From Eubacteriales bacterium (GTDB lineage: Bacteria; Bacillota; Clostridia; Oscillospirales; CAG-272): a stretch of DNA of 64,000 bases. Below the pieces are notes generated by a model. It was not told the DNA's origin. It worked only from the letters and a program-made list of their open reading frames with translations, and ran no database searches. The translations under genes were made by a program, and so were the position numbers. Location of the stretch: contig JAZOLL010000030.1 in the NCBI GenBank assembly GCA_045653105.1, forward strand, positions 536 through 64,535. The letters are read 5' to 3'. Shown in pieces: positions 5,198 through 18,097 of this stretch; position 1 is the first letter of the stretch, and each line of letters begins with the position of its first letter.

Positions 5198-5417
5198 AAA
5201 TTCAGGCTCTCCTTTCCAAAGCTTTTCCACATCTTTTTTATTATAACATAAAACCAAGTGCTCTTCAATAGAGAGATAAAAAATAACGCAAAGCGTATCT
5301 TCCATACCCCTAGGTCTCAAAATTTCAAAAAAATCATATAGGGTATTGAAATATATAGTAATATGTTGTATAATTAAAGGTGTGATTGAAAAAGTACTAA
5401 AAATTTGGAGGGAAATT

Positions 5418-6377
5418 ATGAAAAAAATCATCTCTTTAGCATTGCTCGTTATGATGCTTTTGACATTTGTTGCTTGTGGCAATAAAGGAGCAGGAACTAT
5501 GACAATGGGTACCGGCGGTACAGCAGGTACATATTACGGATACGGCGGAATTCTCGGCTCTCAGATCAAGAATGCCTCAGGCATCACCGTAAACGTTGTT
5601 TCTACAGACGGCTCTAAGGCTAATATTCTCGGTATAGATGCCGGCAACTATCAGCTCGCAACCGTTCAGTCTGACGTTATGGCTTACGCTTGGGCAGGCT
5701 CTCGCTCCTTCGAGGCTGAGGGCGCACTCAAGTCCTTCCGCGTTATAGGCGGTCTCTATGCTGAGGCTGTTCAGCTTGTAACTACAGATCCTTCTATCAA
5801 ATCCGTAGCTGATCTCAGAGGCAAGAAGGTATCTATCGGTGCTCCCGGCTCGGGTGTTTACTTCAACGCTATGGACGTGCTCACCGCGGCTGGTCTTACC
5901 GCTGACGATATCAATCCTCAGTACCAGTCCTTCGCTGACTCCGCAGACGCGCTCAAGAACGGCACTATCGCTGCGGCATTCATCGTTGCAGGACCGCCCA
6001 CACCCGCTATAACAGAGCTCTTTACAACCAACACTGCATACCTCGTTCCGATCGACGGTGCAGTTGCAGATACACTTATGGCTAGCTGCCCCTACTACAC
6101 AGTTCACTCTATCCCCGCAGGCACATACAAGGGACAGACCGAAGAGGTAAAGACTGTTACCGTTAAGGCAACTCTTATCGTAAGCGCATCCGCATCCGAA
6201 GAAAACGTTTACAACATCACAAAGGCAATATTCGATAACATTCCCGCCATCAAAGAGGCTCACGCTAAGGGCGCAGAGCTCTCCCTTGAAAACGCTACCA
6301 GCGGTATGACAGCTCCCTTCCACAAAGGCGCGGCTAAGTACTTTGCTGAAAAAGGTATCACGGTAGTAAGCGAGTAA
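5418..6377 (+). CDS. TRAP transporter solute receptor, TAXI family (lipoprotein)
   Basis: Start ATG 5418 after GGAGGG. Lipobox FVACG. TAXI signature GTGGTAGTYYGYGG. Confidence 0.9.
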   Translation: MKKIISLALLVMMLLTFVACGNKGAGTMTMGTGGTAGTYYGYGGILGSQIKNASGITVNVVSTDGSKANILGIDAGNYQLATVQSDVMAYAWAGSRSFEAEGALKSFRVIGGLYAEAVQLVTTDPSIKSVADLRGKKVSIGAPGSGVYFNAMDVLTAAGLTADDINPQYQSFADSADALKNGTIAAAFIVAGPPTPAITELFTTNTAYLVPIDGAVADTLMASCPYYTVHSIPAGTYKGQTEEVKTVTVKATLIVSASASEENVYNITKAIFDNIPAIKEAHAKGAELSLENATSGMTAPFHKGAAKYFAEKGITVVSE

Positions 6378-6469: not shown

Positions 6470-8425
6470 ATGGCTCTTTTTAAGAAAAAAAAGACTGTGG
6501 TAGAAAACGAACCTATGGATCTTGATTCGATAATGAAAAAGTACGATAAAGAATCCACAACCCGTATCTGGGAAGGCGTACCAAAAATTGTCGTCACCTC
6601 TATCCTTGCTCTCTTCTCTTTGATGTGCATATACGTTACTTTCTTTGCAACCTGGCTTGACGAGCTCCGCCTCACCACCTTCATGGCGTATATCGTCTTT
6701 ATCGGATACATAGTTTTCCCCGCAAAGAAAGGTCCGCAAAAGAAAAACCATATGCCCTGGTACGATATCGTACTTATGGTGCTTGGTACCGGCGCATTTT
6801 TATATTTTGCATTCAACGCGACAGATATTGTCGCTCGCTATAAGATCACAACTCTTGAGGTAATTATCGGTATTGTCGGTATTATCTGCCTTGCAGAGCT
6901 CTGCCGCCGAAGCGTTGGTCTCCCCATTCTCTGCGTTGCAGGCGCGCTTTTGATCTACGCGCTCGTCTGGGGTCTCAACAACCCAAGCTTCTTTAAGCGT
7001 ATAGTTGAAAGTGTAAGAATCCTCTTCTACTCCAAGGAGGGTATGCTCTCAACACCTGTTAACGTTTGCTCAAAGTTTATCGTTATGTTTATCATATTCG
7101 GTGCTTTCCTTGAGCGAACGGGTATCGCTGATTTCTTTATAAATATCGCAAACGCGCTCGTCGGCCGCTTTTCTGGTGGTCCCGCAAAGGTTGCCGTAGT
7201 CGCTTCCGCACTTGAAGGAATGGTATCCGGCTCATCGGTTGCGAACACCGTAGGCTCGGGTGCTGTAACCATCCCGCTTATGAAAAAGACGGGCTATAAG
7301 CCCGAATTTGCAGCAGCTGCGGAGGCATCCGCTTCTACAGGCGGTCAGATAATGCCTCCTATCATGGGCGCTGCCGCATTCCTTATGGCAGAGACCATCG
7401 GAGTTCCCTATTCAAACCTCGTAGTAAGAGCAATTCTCCCCGCCATTCTTTACTTTGCAGGCGTGTTTATCACAGTTCACCTTGAGGCAAAGAAAGAGGG
7501 TCTTCGCGGTCTCACAAAAGAGGAGCTTCCTCGCATAGTTCCGCTCCTTAAAAAGACCTATCTGCTCCTTCCCCTTATGGTACTGATATATCTCGTGGGT
7601 ACAAACACAAAGTCTATCGCATACGCGGCGGCTATCGCTATTGTCGTTGCGATCGTGGTAAGCCTCTTTAACAAAGAGAACAGAATTACCCCCAAGAAGA
7701 TCTGGGAGGCTCTCGCGGCAGGTGCTCAGGGTATGATAACCGTTGCGGTTGCCTGCGGTATCGCTGGTATCGTCGCAGGACTTATCAGCGTTACAGGTCT
7801 CGCATATATGCTCTTTAACGGTATCGTTGCTTTCGCGGGAGATCACCTCATAATCGCGCTCTTCCTCACGATGCTCTGCTGTATCGTCCTTGGAATGGGC
7901 GTTCCCACCACGGCTAACTACTGTATTATGGCGGCGACCTGCGCTCCTATCCTCGTTCAGATGGGCGTACCGATGATCGCGGCTCACTTCTTCGTATTCT
8001 ACTTCGGAATCGTTGCCGATCTAACGCCTCCCGTTGCCCTTGCGGCTTACGCGGGCGCGGCAATAGCTCAGGCAAACCCGATGAAGACCGCGGTCACCGC
8101 AACAAAGCTTGCAATTGGCGCGTTTATCGTTCCTTACGTGTTCGCACTCAACCCCGCAATGCTCTTTATCGGAACGAACGGTGTATTTGAGATCGCACTT
8201 ATCGTTGTATCCTCACTCGTTGGAATCTTTGCGGTCTCCGCGGCTCTTGAGGGATACGTTATAACGCATATGCGCTGGTACACGAGGATCGTCAGCATTT
8301 GCGGCGGACTTCTCCTTATCTACCCCGGCCTTGTGACCGACCTTATCGGTCTCTCGCTGGTGGCACTTGTGATAGCGTTCCAGTTCATCACAAAGAAGAA
8401 AAGCGCAAAAGCACTTGCGGCATAA
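6470..8425 (+). CDS. TRAP transporter permease, fused 4TM/12TM (TAXI-associated)
   Basis: 651 aa polytopic protein directly downstream of the TAXI receptor. A nested hairpin in the 92 nt intercistronic gap (about 6395-6450) may act as an attenuator or stabiliser. Confidence 0.9.
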   Translation: MALFKKKKTVVENEPMDLDSIMKKYDKESTTRIWEGVPKIVVTSILALFSLMCIYVTFFATWLDELRLTTFMAYIVFIGYIVFPAKKGPQKKNHMPWYDIVLMVLGTGAFLYFAFNATDIVARYKITTLEVIIGIVGIICLAELCRRSVGLPILCVAGALLIYALVWGLNNPSFFKRIVESVRILFYSKEGMLSTPVNVCSKFIVMFIIFGAFLERTGIADFFINIANALVGRFSGGPAKVAVVASALEGMVSGSSVANTVGSGAVTIPLMKKTGYKPEFAAAAEASASTGGQIMPPIMGAAAFLMAETIGVPYSNLVVRAILPAILYFAGVFITVHLEAKKEGLRGLTKEELPRIVPLLKKTYLLLPLMVLIYLVGTNTKSIAYAAAIAIVVAIVVSLFNKENRITPKKIWEALAAGAQGMITVAVACGIAGIVAGLISVTGLAYMLFNGIVAFAGDHLIIALFLTMLCCIVLGMGVPTTANYCIMAATCAPILVQMGVPMIAAHFFVFYFGIVADLTPPVALAAYAGAAIAQANPMKTAVTATKLAIGAFIVPYVFALNPAMLFIGTNGVFEIALIVVSSLVGIFAVSAALEGYVITHMRWYTRIVSICGGLLLIYPGLVTDLIGLSLVALVIAFQFITKKKSAKALAA

Positions 8426-10145: not shown

Positions 10146-11249
10146 TCACTTTGCTATTTTCGCAGAAAGCTCTTCATACAGCGCTCTCGTTGTCTCGTCT
10201 GTCTTCTCGCCAATTACTATCACTCGCTCGTCAACTCTCAAAACTATAGATGTTTGGCTCTTTGTGTACGTGTATCGCGTGAACACGCCAAACTCCTCGT
10301 TCTGGAAAGTGCCGAGGAGCAATTTTGCCGAATTGAATCCGCCAACCTTTATTCCTCCGACCTTCTCCCCGCGGAGCTCTATAGAGTCGATATCCTCATA
10401 ATTTATCGTCGTCTCCTGCCAGAAGGTCGCGTCAAGCGTGAGAGAATCATCACCAACCGTAGTCTCCACCTCACCCACGAACATCAAGAAGAAAAGCAAA
10501 ATTGCGAGCAAAACAGAAATAACTATAATAACCGCTCTTGCCTGCTTGGGATTTTTAACTATCTCTTTGTATCCCGCCTCGTAATCCTCCTTTGTCACCT
10601 TTCCTTCTGCAAGCTGACGCTTATAAAATCTGTAGGAATATACCGTAGGAAGAATAGCAATACAAAGTATTATTGCAATAAAGAGGAAGGGCAATATCTT
10701 TTCGGGGAGCGGCATTGCCAAAAGACAAGCAAAGCCTGCCGCCACCATAATCTTTCCGCCAAAGCGGTGAGTAGCCTGCCAGTTCTCGTCATTCGCCTGC
10801 GCCCACTTTATCTTTATGCCCATAGTGAGATTTCTCGTGGTTTTGGGCATATAGTTACCGACTATAATAAACGCCGCGCCAATTATCGCAAGCACCATAA
10901 AGCCGATCTTCGAGGCGTATCCAAGCGCGGTAGCAAACACCATACCGCAGCTGGAGAGCGAGATCACGGGAATTATCCAAAATACAAGTCCCATAACCTT
11001 GTCATTCTGCTCATTTCCCTTATCCATGACCGAGGTGAGTATCACGCAAAGCCAATGTACTGCCAAAAGAATAAGAGGAATCAGAATAAATATAAGCTTT
11101 GGGCTTCCAAATCCGTCAGCCTCACCGCTCAGATTCCAATGTACAGCTATATTTTCGGGAAGTATTTTATCCGCAAAAAATCCGATCAACATAGGAATAA
11201 GAGTTACTACAGAGGATATTATCAACTTTATCTTATTTCTTTTTATCAT
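10146..11249 (-). CDS. SdpI/DUF1648-family membrane protein with C-terminal bacterial PH-like domain
   Basis: Start ATG 11249 overlaps the ArsR stop (ATGA). DUF1648-like N-terminus (LPENIAVHWNLSGEADGFGS). Multiple TM segments, then a soluble C-terminal domain of about 110 aa. Confidence 0.75.
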   Translation of the reverse strand: MIKRNKIKLIISSVVTLIPMLIGFFADKILPENIAVHWNLSGEADGFGSPKLIFILIPLILLAVHWLCVILTSVMDKGNEQNDKVMGLVFWIIPVISLSSCGMVFATALGYASKIGFMVLAIIGAAFIIVGNYMPKTTRNLTMGIKIKWAQANDENWQATHRFGGKIMVAAGFACLLAMPLPEKILPFLFIAIILCIAILPTVYSYRFYKRQLAEGKVTKEDYEAGYKEIVKNPKQARAVIIVISVLLAILLFFLMFVGEVETTVGDDSLTLDATFWQETTINYEDIDSIELRGEKVGGIKVGGFNSAKLLLGTFQNEEFGVFTRYTYTKSQTSIVLRVDERVIVIGEKTDETTRALYEELSAKIAK

Positions 11250-11533
11250 TTCTTCTCTTCTCCTTTCAAATCTGCAATCCAAAGCATTATTTCTTCAAGA
11301 ACCGACGCGTTGAGCTCATAATAAATATATTTTCCCTCGCGCCTGTCTCTTATCAGATCCGCCTCCTTCAAGACTGACAAATGTCTCGAAATAGATGCGC
11401 CCGTGACATCAAAGTGCTCAACTATATCCCCCGCGGACTTTCTGCCCTCCTTTAAAAGATTCAATATCTCGCGGCGTATAGGATCAGAGAGCGCTTTCAT
11501 GGTGTTTTGAAGTCCCATCTTCGTCCTCCTCAT
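11246..11533 (-). CDS. ArsR/SdpR-family transcriptional regulator
   Basis: 95 aa winged-HTH protein (ALSDPIRREILNLLKEGRKSAGDIVEHFDVTGASISRHLSVLKEADLI). RBS GAGGAGG upstream. Confidence 0.9.
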   Translation of the reverse strand: MRRTKMGLQNTMKALSDPIRREILNLLKEGRKSAGDIVEHFDVTGASISRHLSVLKEADLIRDRREGKYIYYELNASVLEEIMLWIADLKGEEKK

Positions 11534-11536
11534 TTA

Positions 11537-11589
11537 ACATTTAACCTAATTGTTAAATGTATTATAGCACATAAAAAGCATATTGTCAA
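11537..11589 (-). promoter_or_regulatory. Promoter plus palindromic operator of the arsR-sdpI-ABC operon
   Basis: On the minus strand: TTGACA (11584-11589), 17 nt spacer, TGC-TATAAT (11561-11566). A perfect 9 bp inverted repeat ACATTTAAC-N6-GTTAAATGT (11537-11560) follows directly. Confidence 0.8.
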
Positions 11590-11613: not shown

Positions 11614-11654
11614 AAAAATAAAAAGGCCCCACCAAAAGCCAGGGCTTTTGATGG
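11614..11654 (-). terminator. Rho-independent terminator downstream of oppA
   Basis: Minus strand CCATCAAAAGCC / GGCTTTTGGTGG stem followed by GGCCTTTTTATTTTT. Confidence 0.75.
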
Positions 11655-11759: not shown

Positions 11760-13586
11760 TTATTTGTAGTACTTCTTGAGGATCTCAAGAGCCTTCTCAA
11801 CGTTAGCCTCGAAAGCTTCCTCGCTTACATCATAGTAACCGTCGAAGTTGTCTGTTGTGCTACCTGCGTTCTTGTAGAACTCCTTGCCGTCTGCATCAGT
11901 CATACCCATAGCAACGAAGGAGGAAGCGGGAAGCTGTCCGCCCTGAGCTACGTCGTTAACGATGTAGTTACGGTCGAAGAGGAGAGAGATTGCGTTACGG
12001 ATCTCAGCCTGAGCCTTTTCAGCCTCAACGCCTGTGAGTGTAGATCCCTCGGGAAGAATGTTCTCGTTGATGTTCCAGCATACATAGTATGTACCGATCT
12101 GACCAGCGATTACGAACTCACCCTTGTAGTCCTTCTTGAGGTTAGCGATCTCGTTTGTGGGAACGTCATCAATGAGGAGCCATGTGCCGTTCTTGAAGTT
12201 TGCAAGCATGTTGTTTGCATCATCAGAAAGGTGGCACTTGATCTCGGGCATTGTAACTTCAGCAGCACCGTGGAAGTTAGCGTTCTTTGTGAGTGTGATT
12301 ACAGAGTTGTGTGTCCAAGCAGAGATTGTGTATGCACCGTTGCAAACATATGTCTCAGGCTCAGCTGCCCATTCAATAGGCTCACCATCTTCGTCAACTG
12401 CCTCTACAGCAGGAGCGTATACAGGGTAGTATGTCGGGAATGCGAGAAGCTCGTTCCAGTAGGATACCTCGTTAGCAAGTGTAACCTGAAGAGTTGTAGC
12501 GTCAAGAGCCTCAACTGCGAGGCCGTCCTTGTCATCTGTGCCGTAGCCCTTAACTACTTCGAACATGTAGCCGTAGTCAGCACCGAGTTCTGCAGAAGCA
12601 GCTCTCTTCCAAGCATACTCAAAGTCCTCAGCGGTAACGTCAGCGCCGTTGCTCCACTTCATACCAGACTTGAGTGTGTATGTGTATGTAACTGTTCCAT
12701 CAGCGTTCTTTACACCCTCAACGAGCTCTGTAGCAGCGTCAGCAACGATAACGAGGTTACCATTGGAATCCTGTGCCCACTTTGCGAGACCGGAGAAGAG
12801 GTGTGCGAGCATTGTAGCACCGTCAACTGCGCTGTTGAGAGCGGGGTCGATAGTGTCAGGCTCAGAGGAGAGACATACGTCGAGAGTTGTCTTGCCCTCT
12901 ACTGTTGTGTACATGAAGTACTTGTAGCCGAGAGGGTTAGAGAAGAATCCCTTAACGCTGTCGTCAACCATGTAAAGGTCTGTGTAGTAGTAGAGAGGAA
13001 CGATACAACCTGTAGCCATAAGCATATCCTCAGCGATGTGCATAAGGGCATAACGTGTGTCCTTGTCTGTGCAACCCTTGATTGTGGAGATAAGAACGTC
13101 GTATGTCTCTGCCCATGTGCCGTTTGTTACCTTAACAGCCTTATCTCCGAGAACGGAAGCGTAAGCTGTGAGGTCGAGGTTGTACATCTTAAGAGTTGCG
13201 TGAGCACCCTTACCGAACTGAACGTCGTTGTTACCGGATCCACTTGTCCACATATCGAGGAAGCATATCGGATCGTTGTAGTCAGCGAGCCAGCCGTTAC
13301 GTGCGATGGAGTAGTTACCATCTTTACGTGTGTTAAGGAATGTGTTCCACTCCTGGTTCTCAAGGTTCATTGTGATACCGAAGTTTGCGAGAGCAGACTG
13401 GAGGTACTCACCGATTACCTTGTGACCTTCAGATGTGTTGTAAAGGTATGTAAGTGTGGGGAAGTTGCTGAACTTTACAGCTTCCTCTGTCTGAGGACCC
13501 TTATCATCGGTGTTCTTCTTACCGCAGGATACCATCATAGTGAGAAGCATAAGTACAGCAAGTACGATTGCCAAAAACTTTTTCAT
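11760..13586 (-). CDS. oppA: Oligopeptide ABC transporter substrate-binding lipoprotein (family 5), with circularly permuted segment order
   Basis: Start ATG 13586 (MKKFLAIV..., lipobox MVSCG). Family-5 SBP blocks are present, but the canonical C-terminal block (NQEWN...GWLADYNDPICFLDMW...PLYYYTD) comes before the canonical N-terminal block (TLDVCLSSEPDTIDPA...KWSNGADVTAEDFEYAWKR). Confidence 0.88.
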   Translation of the reverse strand: MKKFLAIVLAVLMLLTMMVSCGKKNTDDKGPQTEEAVKFSNFPTLTYLYNTSEGHKVIGEYLQSALANFGITMNLENQEWNTFLNTRKDGNYSIARNGWLADYNDPICFLDMWTSGSGNNDVQFGKGAHATLKMYNLDLTAYASVLGDKAVKVTNGTWAETYDVLISTIKGCTDKDTRYALMHIAEDMLMATGCIVPLYYYTDLYMVDDSVKGFFSNPLGYKYFMYTTVEGKTTLDVCLSSEPDTIDPALNSAVDGATMLAHLFSGLAKWAQDSNGNLVIVADAATELVEGVKNADGTVTYTYTLKSGMKWSNGADVTAEDFEYAWKRAASAELGADYGYMFEVVKGYGTDDKDGLAVEALDATTLQVTLANEVSYWNELLAFPTYYPVYAPAVEAVDEDGEPIEWAAEPETYVCNGAYTISAWTHNSVITLTKNANFHGAAEVTMPEIKCHLSDDANNMLANFKNGTWLLIDDVPTNEIANLKKDYKGEFVIAGQIGTYYVCWNINENILPEGSTLTGVEAEKAQAEIRNAISLLFDRNYIVNDVAQGGQLPASSFVAMGMTDADGKEFYKNAGSTTDNFDGYYDVSEEAFEANVEKALEILKKYYK

Positions 13587-13688
13587 AGTAAAAAATCCTT
13601 TCGTTTTTTTTATGTTTTTTTGGGCCTTATATTTTCTGTACGTTGGAGAAAGCATTGCACCTCTATCTCCGAACAGTAGAGAACTGAA

Positions 13689-14684
13689 TTAGTTTATTTC
13701 TGCCACACGGTGGCAAGCGACAAAGTGTCCCTTAGACACTTCCTTGAATTCGGGCATCGCCTCTGCGCACTGAGCTGTCGCATAAGGACAACGTGTGCGG
13801 AAAGGACAACCCGAGGGAGCGTTGAGCGGACTGGGGATATCACCCTCGAGAGGTATTCTCACGTTTGCGCGGGCGATCTTGGGGTCCGGCACGGGAACTG
13901 CGGACATAAGTGCCTTGGAATAGGGGTGGAGCGGATGATCGTAGATCTCGGCAGCGTCTGCCATCTCAACCATCTTACCGAGGTACATGACCGCGATTCT
14001 GTCACTTATATGACGAACGACGAGAAGGTCGTGCGCGATAAACAAATAGGAAAGTCCGAGCTTCTCCTGGAGCTCACCGAACATATTGATGACCTGTGCC
14101 TGAATAGACACGTCGAGTGCGGATACAGGCTCGTCACAAACGATAAACTCGGGGTTTATCGCAAGCGCTCTCGCGATACCGATTCTCTGTCTCTGTCCTC
14201 CGGAGAACTCGTGAGCGTATCTTGATGCGTGCTCACTGTTAAGTCCAACGCTGTTCATAAGCTCAAGAACCTTTTCCTGACGCTCTTCCTTTGAGGAGTA
14301 GAGTTTATGGATATCAAGAGGCTCTGCAATGATATCAGCAACTGTCATACGGGGGTTAAGAGAGGAATACGGATCCTGGAAAACCATAGCGGCTTTCTTT
14401 CTGAACTCAAGGATATCCTCCTTTGTCTCGATCTTCTTTCCTTTATAGTATATCTCACCCGCCGTAGGCTTGTAAAGATGCAAAAGTGTTCTACCTGCTG
14501 TAGTCTTTCCACATCCGGACTCACCGACAAGACCGAGAGTCTCACCCTTGTTGATGCTGAAGGAAACGCCGTCAACAGCCTTGAGGGGCTTTGTGCGGAA
14601 CATTCCGACATTGATGTTAAAGTGCTGCTTTAGATCCTTGACTTCTACGAGGGGAGCATCATTCTGGAATTCAAAATCATTCAT
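13689..14684 (-). CDS. oppF: Oligopeptide ABC transporter ATP-binding protein OppF
   Basis: Walker A GESGCGKTT, signature FSGGQRQR, Walker B FIVCDEP, and the C-terminal oligopeptide-type extension with Cys motif (CPFRTRCPYA). Confidence 0.92.
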   Translation of the reverse strand: MNDFEFQNDAPLVEVKDLKQHFNINVGMFRTKPLKAVDGVSFSINKGETLGLVGESGCGKTTAGRTLLHLYKPTAGEIYYKGKKIETKEDILEFRKKAAMVFQDPYSSLNPRMTVADIIAEPLDIHKLYSSKEERQEKVLELMNSVGLNSEHASRYAHEFSGGQRQRIGIARALAINPEFIVCDEPVSALDVSIQAQVINMFGELQEKLGLSYLFIAHDLLVVRHISDRIAVMYLGKMVEMADAAEIYDHPLHPYSKALMSAVPVPDPKIARANVRIPLEGDIPSPLNAPSGCPFRTRCPYATAQCAEAMPEFKEVSKGHFVACHRVAEIN

Positions 14685-15723
14685 TTTCTGTTTCCTCCTC
14701 TGTCAAAGCTTCTTTTTCTTCCTTTTCGTCAAGAGAGATCTTTCCCTCTTCAACCGCAAGCTTTACGTTCATCCAGCAAGTAGCGTGGTGATCGCAGTTT
14801 ATCTCCATACGCTCTGCAGGATGAGAGAGGCATATCTTCATAGCCGCATCACATCTGGGAGCAAAAGGACAGCCCGCAGGCATATTCAAAAGGTCGATAG
14901 GAGTACCCGTAATAGGCTGGAGGGGTTCTCCGTCGTTAGTTGTTGTAGGAATAGATCTTATAAGTCCCTTTGTGTACTCATGGCGGGGGTTGTAGAATAT
15001 CTCGTCAGCAGTTCCCTGCTCACAGATAGATCCCGCGTACATAACGATGACCTCATCACACATCTGGGCAACGACACGAAGGACGTGAGTGATGATAATG
15101 ATCGCCATTCCAAGCTCGCGCTGGAGAGAGCCCATAAGCTCGAGTATCTGTGCCTGAATGGTAACGTCAAGAGCGGTCGTAGGCTCGTCGGCGATAAGGA
15201 TATCAGGCTCGCAAGCAAGCGCCATCGCGATAACTATACGCTGACGCATACCGCCCGAGAACTCGTAGGGGTACTGATTCATTCTCTTTTCAGGCTCATT
15301 GATATTAACGAGACGAAGCATCTCTATTGCTCGCTCTTTAGCCTGCTTTCTGTTTCTGGGGGTGTGGAGCATTATAGCTTCCATAAGCTGATGACCTATA
15401 GTATAAGTCGGGTTGAGAGAGGTCATAGGGTCCTGGAAGATTATAGAGACCTTATTTCCGCGAACGGTCTTCATAACCTTCTCACCCGCGCCGACGAGCT
15501 CCTGTCCGTCAAGCTTTATAGAAGAACCTTCTTTGATCTTTGCTGTAGATGCAAGGATCTGCATTATAGAGTAAGCGGTTACGGATTTTCCCGAGCCCGA
15601 CTCACCCACGATTCCAAGTACTTTACCGTGATCGAGGTTGAAGGAGATACCGTTTACGGCACGAACCTCACCTGCGTCGGTAAAGAAAGACGTCTGTAAA
15701 TTTCTAACTTCAAGTAAAGCCAT
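14677..15723 (-). CDS. oppD: Oligopeptide ABC transporter ATP-binding protein OppD
   Basis: Walker A GESGSGKSV, signature FSGGMRQR, Walker B ILIADEPTT. Overlaps oppF by 8 nt. Confidence 0.92.
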   Translation of the reverse strand: MALLEVRNLQTSFFTDAGEVRAVNGISFNLDHGKVLGIVGESGSGKSVTAYSIMQILASTAKIKEGSSIKLDGQELVGAGEKVMKTVRGNKVSIIFQDPMTSLNPTYTIGHQLMEAIMLHTPRNRKQAKERAIEMLRLVNINEPEKRMNQYPYEFSGGMRQRIVIAMALACEPDILIADEPTTALDVTIQAQILELMGSLQRELGMAIIIITHVLRVVAQMCDEVIVMYAGSICEQGTADEIFYNPRHEYTKGLIRSIPTTTNDGEPLQPITGTPIDLLNMPAGCPFAPRCDAAMKICLSHPAERMEINCDHHATCWMNVKLAVEEGKISLDEKEEKEALTEEETENE

Positions 15724-15742: not shown

Positions 15743-17149
15743 TTAACCGTTGAGCTTGGGGTCGAACGCATCGCGGAGACCGTCGCCAAAGAGATTGAGC
15801 GAAAGTACTATCAGCGAGATAACGATCGCGGGAATTATCAGACGGTAGGGATACGAGGAGATACCGTTGAGCGCGTCGGATGCGAGAGATCCGAGAGAAG
15901 GCATCGGAGCGTTTACGCCGAGACCGAGGAAGGAGAGATAGCTCTCTGTAAAAATCGCGCTGGGTATCTGAAGTGCTGTGGAAATGATAATAACACTGAT
16001 ACAGTTGGGAACGAGGTGCTTGCGGATTATCCAGCCGCTCTTAGCACCGGATGCGCGAGCGGAGAGTACGTACTCCTGCTCACGAAGTGAGAGTATCTGT
16101 CCGCGGATAAGACGGGACATAGATACCCAGTAAAGAAGTCCGAATACTATAAACAAGCTTATAATATTGCTTCCTATCTTTTCAAGAACAGTTCCTTCGA
16201 TGACGTCCCCGAGAAGCAGCTTCATAACAGAAGCAAGCAAGATGACCATAAGCATATCCGGAAGCGCGTAAATGATATCAACGATACGCATGATGACAAG
16301 GTCAACAACACCGCCGCAGTAACCTGCGATAGCGCCGATAAGCATACCGAGAATAAGAACTATGATACTTGCAAAAAGACCGACAGCGAGAGATACTCTC
16401 ATACCGTAAACGACACGGATGAGGTAATCACGACCGTGCGAATCTGTTCCGAAAACATGGGGGAATACCTTTTCTGTCTCTCCCTCATAACCGCGGAAGA
16501 AAACAAGGTGATATCCGTCATCACCCTCTATAAGGGCAACGTCTCCTGCGTTACGTACGGATTTTGAACCATCCATTTCCCAAAGCCAAGAAGCCACAGC
16601 CTTTGCCTTTGAGTAGCTTATGTTCTTTACGCCGTCTCGCTTTTTGTAATCTATGGTCAGTTCCTCAGAAGTCTCATTTGAGAGAGCTATAAAATCAGCC
16701 TCTGTTTTTCCGCTTCCCTCATATTTATTATAAAGAGATTCTGCGAACACCTTTGCCTTAGCATTATACTCTTCATCTGTAAGTTCTTTGGATACTAATA
16801 TCTCGTGGATATTTGCTGTACCAAACATCTTAACACCCTCGGCATCCGAATACTCAAAGGGCGCGAGGTTGTTATAGGAAGAGTCCATCTTTCCCGTCTT
16901 GGGGTTCATTCCAAGCATCTGGTCATAGCCGTAGGGCCATACCATAGGAAGGATTATGCAGGAAAGTGTAAGGATGACAATAACGAAAAAGCTTACTGTT
17001 GCGACCTTGTTTTTGAGAAGTCGCTTAACTCCGTCCTTGAAGAATGTGGAGGGCGGACGCATCTGAACCATATATTCTTTATCTGCTTCTGTTGCAGGCA
17101 GAAAAGAATCTACGTCAACGTGAAAGGAAAAAGGGTTTTTCTTCTTCAT
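15743..17149 (-). CDS. oppC: Oligopeptide ABC transporter permease OppC with a roughly 130 aa extracytoplasmic insertion
   Basis: The C-terminal 240 aa is canonical OppC/DppC (EAA-like loop QEYVLSARASGAKSGWIIRKHLVPN). Between TM1 and the FGTDxxGRD motif there is an extra domain (aa ~98-228) not present in 300 aa OppC proteins. Confidence 0.88.
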   Translation of the reverse strand: MKKKNPFSFHVDVDSFLPATEADKEYMVQMRPPSTFFKDGVKRLLKNKVATVSFFVIVILTLSCIILPMVWPYGYDQMLGMNPKTGKMDSSYNNLAPFEYSDAEGVKMFGTANIHEILVSKELTDEEYNAKAKVFAESLYNKYEGSGKTEADFIALSNETSEELTIDYKKRDGVKNISYSKAKAVASWLWEMDGSKSVRNAGDVALIEGDDGYHLVFFRGYEGETEKVFPHVFGTDSHGRDYLIRVVYGMRVSLAVGLFASIIVLILGMLIGAIAGYCGGVVDLVIMRIVDIIYALPDMLMVILLASVMKLLLGDVIEGTVLEKIGSNIISLFIVFGLLYWVSMSRLIRGQILSLREQEYVLSARASGAKSGWIIRKHLVPNCISVIIISTALQIPSAIFTESYLSFLGLGVNAPMPSLGSLASDALNGISSYPYRLIIPAIVISLIVLSLNLFGDGLRDAFDPKLNG

Positions 17150-17167: not shown

Positions 17168-18097
17168 TTACTCAAGATTTATACGAGGATCGACTACCTT
17201 ATAGAGTATGTCACCGATAAGGTTCATGATAACGATCAACGCGGACAGAATTATAGTTGTACCCATGATAAGCGGATAGTCACGGTTTGTTATGCTGCTG
17301 ACGAAGGCGCGTCCGATTCCGGGGACGGCAAAGATCTGCTCAACAACAAGAGAGCCTGTAACGATGTACGCAAGCATAGGACCAAAGTATGTGATAACGG
17401 GGATAAGGGAGTTCTTCAGCGCGTGACCGAAGATGATCTTGGGAGCGGACACACCTTTCGCCTTTGCGGTTCTGATGTAGTCCTGTCCGAGAACGTCAAG
17501 CATAGAAGAACGGGTAAGACGCGTGATATACGCGGTCGGATAAAGCGCGAGTGTTATAATAGGAAGGACAAGTCCCGCCGCGGTCTCTCCATTTGCGGGT
17601 AGTACTTGTAGCTTTACCGCAAACACAAGCAGTAATATCGATCCCATAATAAAGGAAGGCATCGAAACAAACGCCGTGGTGATGACCATGATAACACGGT
17701 CGATAAACTTGTTACGGCGGAGCGCCGCAACAGAACCGAGAACCACGCCGATAACAAGAGCCGAGCTTGCCGCAATAACACCGAGCTTTGCGGAAGTCTT
17801 CATACCGTCAGCGATTATATCGATAACCTCTCTACCTCTCTGCTTGAGGGAGGGACCGAAATCAAAATCGGTTACGATATCCTTCAAATATGTAGTGTAC
17901 TGCTCGAACAAGGGCTTGTCGAGACCGTATTTTTCATTGAGTGCTGCCATAGCCTGCTCTGTGAGAGCTTTTTCACCGAGGAAGGGGCCTCCGGGCACAG
18001 CGTGCATAACGAAGAAGGTTACCGTGATAACCACCCATACCGTCAGTATAGCAAGTAATATTCGCTTGACTATGTAGAGCATAGTTTTGGAATTCAT
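17168..18097 (-). CDS. oppB: Oligopeptide ABC transporter permease OppB
   Basis: Canonical OppB/DppB start (LYIVKRILLAILTVWVVITVTFFVMHAVPGGPF). Start taken at ATG 18097; ATG 18082 is an alternative. Confidence 0.88.
   Translation of the reverse strand: MNSKTMLYIVKRILLAILTVWVVITVTFFVMHAVPGGPFLGEKALTEQAMAALNEKYGLDKPLFEQYTTYLKDIVTDFDFGPSLKQRGREVIDIIADGMKTSAKLGVIAASSALVIGVVLGSVAALRRNKFIDRVIMVITTAFVSMPSFIMGSILLLVFAVKLQVLPANGETAAGLVLPIITLALYPTAYITRLTRSSMLDVLGQDYIRTAKAKGVSAPKIIFGHALKNSLIPVITYFGPMLAYIVTGSLVVEQIFAVPGIGRAFVSSITNRDYPLIMGTTIILSALIVIMNLIGDILYKVVDPRINLE

Follow-up and report, generated by a model that had tools for sequence, protein, structure and literature searches.

Sequence evidence for a circularly permuted OppA-type substrate-binding lipoprotein of gut Clostridia

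What kind of receptor serves a peptide importer when the two halves of its chain stand in reverse order? The question is raised by one gene in the window, the whole stretch of 64,000 nucleotides analysed here, from contig JAZOLL010000030.1 of a Eubacteriales bacterium (assembly GCA_045653105.1). The gene (table 1) is the last of an opp operon and encodes a substrate-binding protein (SBP) of 608 amino acids (aa). A first-pass annotation had proposed that this OppA-type lipoprotein begins with the block in which its relatives end. Profile matches to PF00496 and phmmer alignments to OppA and DppE in the PDB bear out the swapped block order. The product is very probably a functional lipid-anchored peptide receptor of an Opp-type importer, with the OppA fold in a circularly permuted chain. 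Its order is called type A below; the normal order is called canonical.

Order of the chain

The Pfam family PF00496 (SBP_bac_5) is matched with 201 bits (gathering cutoff 32.4, E = 4e-59), and the match falls in two stretches. When the stretches are scanned separately, aa 42–120 correspond to positions 288–367 of the hidden Markov model (HMM) and aa 287–605 to positions 5–275. These are the two partial matches in swapped HMM order that had been predicted, and no collinear full-length alignment to the model is obtained. The canonical ortholog P0313 is matched by the same model in a single collinear stretch, HMM 11–367. Searches with phmmer in all PDB sequences give a corresponding picture. On the chain of Bacillus subtilis DppE (8ay0), query residues 233–575 align with residues 22–339 (independent E-value 6e-32), residues 38–120 with 361–444 (9e-12) and residues 158–222 with 448–513 (3e-9). 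The swapped order recurs against OppA 8are, Yersinia pestis OppA 2z23 and about 40 more family-5 structures; a collinear alignment is absent from the phmmer matches. None of the NCBIfam OppA/DppA models comes near its cutoff, the best scoring 197 bits against 947.

The N-terminal region of about 200 aa is, as the annotation held, the relocated C-terminal block: it matches the C-terminal parts of PF00496 and of OppA and DppE, and it carries the GWxADYxDP motif, including the equivalent of D419. A truncated OppA N-block behind an unrelated extra domain, which has the unusual layout and nothing more in its favour, is of negligible probability given that aa 38–222 match DppE/OppA 361–513 and HMM 288–367 with this motif, and that rotation makes the sequence align collinearly with a canonical ortholog (72% identity). 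Written as aa 231–608 followed by 34–230, the protein aligns with P0313 from end to end, with 71.9% identity over 558 positions, and the secondary structures predicted in AlphaFold2 (AF2) models of the two agree at 85.7% of positions. Segments 34–230 and 231–608 cover canonical residues ~360–517 and ~1–350, the coverage strictly expected of a circular permutation.

The point at which the old termini meet, placed by the annotation at about nucleotide (nt) 12890, is located at nt ~12879–12911 (aa ~226–236). It reads ...YKYFMYTTV-EGKTT-LDVCLSSEPDT, with a linker of ~5 residues between the old termini. Canonical C-termini end in ...GYKYFMYCTVG (stop). The canonical mature N-terminus, seen in P0315 after its signal (...AEEGKTTLSVCLSSEPDT), resembles EGKTTLxVCLSSEPDT. 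The junction reads as a canonical C-terminus fused directly to the start of a canonical mature chain. Both new ends, ...LKKYYK at the C-terminus and ...KFSNFPTLTYLYNTS at the mature N-terminus, map to a single point of the parent chain. Its counterpart is an internal linker with the consensus ...LKKYYxFDExTGMFTNFPTLTYLYNTS in canonical orthologs, which places the new termini within domain III, in the linker that follows its 'KKYY' helix. Self-BLAST reveals no residual internal repeat in the permuted protein, in keeping with the claim that the rearrangement is clean. These sequence comparisons, with E-values far outside chance, confirm that the OppA chain has been cleanly and circularly permuted.

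The order extends far beyond one contig. In a protein search, 119 of the best 120 clusters (90% identity) consist of full-length type A proteins (583–627 aa, 71–96% identical), the best local alignment covering 93–100% of the query. A second search adds 49 further type A clusters, for a total of at least 168 at the same identity level. The GTDB was surveyed on contigs with one genome per species, and the best 80 loci of 566 genome matches were taken; type A is present in 56 of the 80, at 59–76% identity and collinear with the query. The sources are metagenome-assembled genomes of Acutalibacteraceae, Ca. Flemingiibacterium, 'Ruminococcaceae' and unclassified Clostridia from the guts of ruminants, horses and humans. 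Their open reading frames (ORFs) are intact and bear a lipobox save for L021 and L054, both truncated 5' by the end of the contig; every complete ORF of the related loci carries a lipoprotein signal of the same type. The genes oppB-oppC-oppD-oppF lie upstream wherever the related contig reaches far enough, with products 72–88% identical to those of the window. Type A forms a large family in Oscillospirales. Several of its members are named 'hypothetical protein' by NCBI and others 'peptide ABC transporter substrate-binding protein'; the former label would arise because the permutation appears to defeat the name-giving HMMs.

This breadth of independent assemblies refutes the reading that misassembly, a frameshift or a gene-calling error merged two adjacent canonical oppA genes, the chance of which is practically nil. 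The sequence is of metagenome style, and one related contig (L001, encoding P0002, discussed below) looks chimeric, which would suit such an artefact. Against it stand at least 168 independent clusters and, in the GTDB, 56 species representatives drawn from a wide range of studies and hosts. Type A ORFs are also intact: at 59–96% identity, each has a signal peptide, a natural stop and a terminator of its own, and the 64-kb window contains no second SBP_bac_5 gene or SBP fragment besides the permuted gene.

Predicted fold and receptor function

The AF2 model of the permuted protein has a predicted local distance difference test (pLDDT) score of 76.9 and a predicted template modelling score of 0.71. 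With this model, Foldseek finds OppA-family structures only, over 389–408 columns (template modelling score TMt 0.48–0.51, E = 7e-18). Foldseek is a sequential aligner by which a permuted superposition is not directly demonstrable, and the canonical ortholog P0313 served as control. The P0313 model (pLDDT 77.8) aligns over 566–579 columns (TMt 0.69–0.71, E = 2e-41). Partial cover for the permuted protein beside full cover for its ortholog is the pattern expected of a permutation.

The domains of Salmonella typhimurium OppA are said to have been delimited by Tame et al. in 1994. Domain I reportedly comprises residues 1–44, 169–270 and 487–517, domain II residues 45–168 and domain III residues 271–486. 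When these limits are combined with the alignment to 2z23, a three-domain OppA architecture is inferred for the permuted protein, in which the chain would run as follows. (i) It would start at the Cys21 lipobox, continue as a tether of ~20 aa and enter the second half of domain III (aa ~41–201, canonical ~360–486). (ii) It would then cross into the C-terminal piece of domain I (aa ~202–226) and pass through the junction to the canonical N-terminus. (iii) Domains I(a), II and I(b) would follow (aa ~236–512), after which the chain would return into the first half of domain III. (iv) It would end after the 'KKYY' helix, at canonical ~350. Both inter-lobe crossovers that form the hinge are kept in type A, and the positions of the termini alone differ.

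The ligand-binding site is also retained. In OppA (S. typhimurium numbering), Asp419 forms a salt bridge with the α-amino group of the peptide, Arg413 and His371 anchor C-terminal carboxylates, and Trp397 and Trp416 are also among the peptide-anchoring residues. Residues D102, R96, H55, W80 and W99 of the permuted protein, which from the 2z23 alignment we take to be the D419, R413, H371, W397 and W416 sites, are invariant among the 39 family members of alignment A1, as is the lipobox cysteine C21. These alignments indicate that the protein is under purifying selection. Since crossovers and anchoring residues are kept, the permuted protein would be expected to bind peptides with a free N-terminus and to close in Venus-flytrap fashion. 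It would also dock on OppBC like normal OppA, and the sole physical change would be a lipid tether that exits domain III instead of domain I.

A real permutant could also be decaying, or have been turned to another use (a sensor or an adhesin, for example) and not serve as the transport receptor. Modules of a related fold in another permuted order (type C, below) are fused to Ser/Thr kinases, and the 'hypothetical protein' labels of several members would fit such a role. This reading is improbable. The gene occupies the receptor position in a complete oppBCDF operon as its sole SBP; across lineages of all three operon topologies described below, the genes for permeases and ATPases keep ~80% identity; and the ligand-anchoring residues do not vary. 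Frameshifts and truncations are absent from the related loci that are not cut by a contig end, which speaks against decay.

Other topologies and the origin of the permutation

The permuted order has company. A HMMER search of 1.84 billion representatives at 50% identity returned 934 proteins at E < 1e-30, and the best 150 were mapped onto the query by high-scoring segment pairs (HSPs). Canonical order is found in 59 of these clusters (a count that includes P0002, mis-scored by the HSP rule). Type C, with a break near aa 126–157 and the last ~70 canonical residues at the front, accounts for 31, type B, with a break at aa 512/513 at the hinge between domains I and III, for 10, and type A, the order of the window protein, for 5. 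Two clusters, one representative each, have other break points, at aa ~349 and ~395. Among the best 150 clusters there are thus at least five break points: aa 608/34, 512/513, ~126–157, ~349 and ~395. Type C, too, lacks a collinear counterpart among PDB entries, and Pfam, which matches an intact PF00496 there, does not see this permutation.

Type B orthologs (L057, L059, L062–L081 and P0337) share the operon position, the C-to-N junction and the lipoprotein signal of type A. They differ in the break, the 95-aa segment 513–607 having moved to the N-terminus: type B proteins end exactly at aa 512, and their N-terminus holds the equivalent of segment 513–608. In Faecousia and other Oscillospiraceae they follow oppF in 24 of the 80 loci from the GTDB, and they are 70–74% identical to the window protein over aa 34–512. 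A break at the hinge between domains I and III leaves one chain crossover between the lobes and not two, which could change hinge mechanics. Canonical-order orthologs form 26 clusters at 65–78% identity and also follow oppF, for example in L082 and L086. Their products in these two loci, P0313 (L082) and P0317 ('Faecousia sp.', L086), are 65–71% identical in the N-block and 70–78% in the C-block; they hold the operon position of the window SBP but have the normal order, with a single collinear PF00496 stretch. Some canonical-order orthologs have a signal of the signal peptidase I type in place of the lipobox. OppB, OppC, OppD and OppF of L082 and L086 are 77–83% identical to those of the window. 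One orthologous opp operon carries canonical, A and B topologies in sister lineages.

Neighbour-joining (NJ) trees were built from rotated SBP sequences. Three sister pairs each have bootstrap 100: type A P0154 with canonical P0151 (57.5% identity), type A P0209 with canonical P0228 (62%) and type C P0140 with canonical P0148 (68%). Both type A proteins share only 36–43% identity with the window protein. The tree shows types A and C to have arisen independently in the more distant subfamilies. Among the close orthologs, the three topologies are interleaved in a clade with bootstrap 100. This tree joins canonical P0313 with P0317 (bootstrap 86), whereas a tree of OppB+D+F (NJ, midpoint-rooted) separates their operons, placing L082 and L086 in two distinct clades of type B operons (bootstrap 71 and 77–95). 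The OppB+D+F tree places type A basal, with canonical order nested in type B. The conflict between the two trees suggests that alleles of differing topology have also been exchanged by recombination. Separate trees for aa 233–512 and for aa 513–607, which bear on the duplicated copy that types A and B each retained, are too poorly resolved to use. It is somewhat more likely than not that the OppA-type SBPs of gut Clostridia are a hot-spot of reversible topological evolution, in which A and C had several independent origins.

The wider family contains double and fused forms. The lipoprotein P0202 is an N-C-N-C tandem with two complete PF00496 modules by Pfam (634 bits), and the lipoprotein P0260 is a tandem double SBP of the same N-C-N-C order by HSP map only. 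P0194, P0128 and P0130 belong with these tandem and giant proteins; P0128 and P0130, two of the giants of 2.7–3.4 thousand aa, end in a type B module. P0216, P0221, P0200, P0203 and P0267 join an N-terminal Pkinase (Ser/Thr) domain to a C-terminal type C OppA-like module, an arrangement that suggests peptide-sensing kinases with an SBP_bac_5 sensor domain. P0215, P0242, P0247, P0268 and P0269 contain only aa ~451/495–607 plus 34–201, stop exactly where OppA has residue 486, and would correspond to an isolated domain III; the N-terminus of P0269 looks dockerin-like by eye.

How did the first permuted allele arise? The annotation proposed tandem duplication with trimming of the ends. (i) Two canonical copies would have been fused head to tail and in frame, with loss of the second signal peptide. 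(ii) The first N-block and the last C-block would then have been deleted. This route of duplication, fusion and end-trimming is favoured by the signature at the junction and by the complete tandem fusions of the wider family, such as the double SBP P0202; it remains an inference whose sole apparent intermediate, P0002, is doubtful. P0002 is an 879-aa lipoprotein (L001, 409–3048) of the order signal-N-C-N', which ends at aa 512 like type B. It follows an oppF ortholog, with a natural stop and terminator. It is unique among 5.8 billion proteins and comes from a single contig. Its identity changes sharply along the chain, and it is probably a recombinant of canonical by type B or an assembly chimera. 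As a half-trimmed duplication intermediate it was rejected, and it was excluded as evidence because of the identity break and its singleton status. A second candidate, an N-block remnant past the canonical genes of L085 and L086 (a tblastn HSP beyond the stop), proved to be a spurious extension once translated.

The permutant may be functional and yet owe the rise or spread of its topology to recombination of canonical with permuted alleles, to replacement of the SBP gene by horizontal transfer, or to fission and fusion, rather than to duplication and trimming in place. This has a real, if lesser, chance of being right. The disagreement of the SBP tree with the OppBDF tree over P0313/P0317 and L082/L086 speaks for it, as does the recombinant appearance of P0002. 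Recombination moves topologies around, however, and cannot make the first permuted allele; the junction bears the signature of a head-to-tail fusion, and types A and C emerged independently in distant subfamilies beside canonical sisters at 57–68% identity.

Several points weigh against a functional receptor that arose by duplication and trimming. The AF2 model is only moderately confident, because the alignment is shallow (39 sequences, mostly >73% identical). The members are known as sequences from uncultured organisms, and peptide binding and transport are predicted functions. A clean tandem-fused intermediate was not found within the close clade (>60% identity). The C and second N parts of P0002 are 92–95% identical to type B, whereas its signal, first N part and middle are 75–80% identical to anything. 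Finally, the trees favour no single direction of change within the operon family (canonical to A or the reverse), and the midpoint-rooted OppBDF tree even puts type A at the base.

The operon, known permutants and the value of the family

The features of the locus are listed in table 1. The four products encoded upstream of the SBP gene were assigned by Pfam, and the operon order is oppB-oppC-oppD-oppF-SBP. The SBP frame is open over 11760..13655 (-). The preferred start is Met 13586, because a Shine-Dalgarno-like sequence lies upstream of it and the homologs all begin there; the protein then begins MKKFLAIVLAVLMLLTMMVSC and has a lipobox. The tether following the lipobox is variable in length and sequence among orthologs, and pLDDT is below 50 for aa 15–34.

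Table 1. Features of the opp operon and of its permuted SBP gene.
Feature	Position	Strand	Description and evidence
oppB, permease	17168..18097	(-)	Pfam; likely start Met 18097, ORF extends to 18157
oppC, permease	15743..17149	(-)	OppC_N + BPD_transp_1; Pfam
oppD, ABC ATPase	14677..15723	(-)	with oligo_HPY; Pfam, related loci
oppF, ABC ATPase	13689..14684	(-)	with oligo_HPY C-terminal region; Pfam
Shine-Dalgarno-like GAAAGGA	13596..13602	(-)	9 nt 5' of ATG 13586; read from sequence
SBP gene, permuted OppA-type lipoprotein, type A	11760..13586	(-)	608 aa + stop; ORF, PF00496, swapped PDB alignments
Lipoprotein signal peptide and lipobox, aa 1–21	13524..13586	(-)	MKKFLAIVLAVLMLLTMMVS-C21; seen in sequence
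Flexible tether, aa 22–40	13467..13523	(-)	low-complexity
Relocated canonical C-terminal block, aa 41–230	12897..13466	(-)	domain III, second half (up to aa ~201), and C-terminal segment of domain I; holds H55, W80, R96, W99 and D102; DppE 361–444 + 448–513, HMM 288–367
Junction of old termini, aa 226–236	12879..12911	(-)	MYTTVEGKTTL; compared with canonical C- and N-termini
Canonical N-terminal block, lobe 1, aa 231–512	12051..12896	(-)	domains I(a), II, I(b); DppE, PF00496
First half of domain III, aa 513–608	11763..12050	(-)	new C-terminus, helix ...EKALEILKKYYK; homolog comparison
Intrinsic-terminator-like hairpin + T-run	11629..11654	(-)	~105 nt past SBP stop codon

The annotation described the gene as the last of an otherwise ordinary oppBCDFA operon. 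The first part stands, the gene being last and followed by a terminator, and in related loci an oppF ortholog (74–89% identical) immediately precedes the SBP gene. The second part is qualified by OppC, which has an insert of ~120 aa (aa ~105–225) between OppC_N and the BPD_transp_1 core. The insert is presumably extracytoplasmic. It is variable among orthologous operons, being present for example in L002, L011, L012, L014 and L015 and absent elsewhere. Its similarity to the PPIC-type rotamase PF13616 is weak and below threshold (E = 0.056), and a sequence search of the PDB with the insert gave no usable match.

Directly downstream, a perfect sigma-70-type promoter at 11561–11589 (-), TTGACA-17-TATAAT with an upstream TG, serves the next gene, which is of the ArsR family. 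The stretch 10146–11589 (-) encodes this regulator and a membrane protein of the SdpI/YfhL family that has a bacterial PH domain; the two have the look of an SdpR/SdpI-like immunity pair. Elsewhere in the window, judged by eye, the ORF at 5346–6377 (+) resembles a TAXI-family TRAP solute receptor, and that at 6470–8425 (+) a fused TRAP permease.

The window protein shares PF00496 with canonical cluster-C OppA and DppE (8are, 8ay0, 1b05 and 2z23), at ~25–28% identity over the Foldseek alignments. It shares with them the oppBCDF type of operon and the anchoring residues H371, R413, W416 and D419, and its lipoprotein signal resembles that of Gram-positive OppA. It differs from OppA and DppE in having residues ~360–517 first and ~1–350 second, with the old termini fused.

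Engineered circular permutants of periplasmic binding proteins, made as biosensors, illustrate that the bilobal fold tolerates new termini and closed old ones. They are laboratory constructs from other SBP clusters and work outside any transporter. A natural case is TpMglB-2 (Tp0684) of Treponema pallidum, a circularly permuted, lipid-tethered glucose-binding protein of cluster B that binds its ligand (PMC4990184). Its authors proposed a 'Type Ic / Cluster Bc' subclass and speculated on a link between permutation and tethering (PMC4990184); Gram-positive gut bacteria have homologs of it. TpMglB-2 is of the type I sugar-binding class and unrelated in sequence to the window protein, and it has one topology, not several among orthologs. 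No cluster B or MglB homology of the window protein was seen; the matches are to PF00496 and the OppA family only. The likeness is one of analogy and not of shared membership, and the window protein would be the cluster-C counterpart. TpMglB-2 is the only documented natural SBP permutation found in the open-access literature searched, in which no report of a permuted OppA, SBP_bac_5 or cluster C protein was found. New here are the permuted topology in the OppA-type class and the three topologies among orthologous operons.

The permuted protein is a clean and richly sampled case of permutation in a textbook family and involves no new biological mechanism. Its value lies in comparison. Orthologs in normal order and in two permuted orders serve near-identical permeases, which amounts to a controlled natural experiment. 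The origin of permutations can be tested within the family, as can the effects of chain connectivity, of the number of hinge strands and of tether position on dynamics and docking. The natural break points mark permissive sites for the engineering of OppA-based sensors. If the family is indeed a hot-spot, it would provide a dense natural series in which the model of duplication and trimming could be tested step by step, and the mechanical effects of the type B hinge and of the moved tether would be measurable with one cognate permease.

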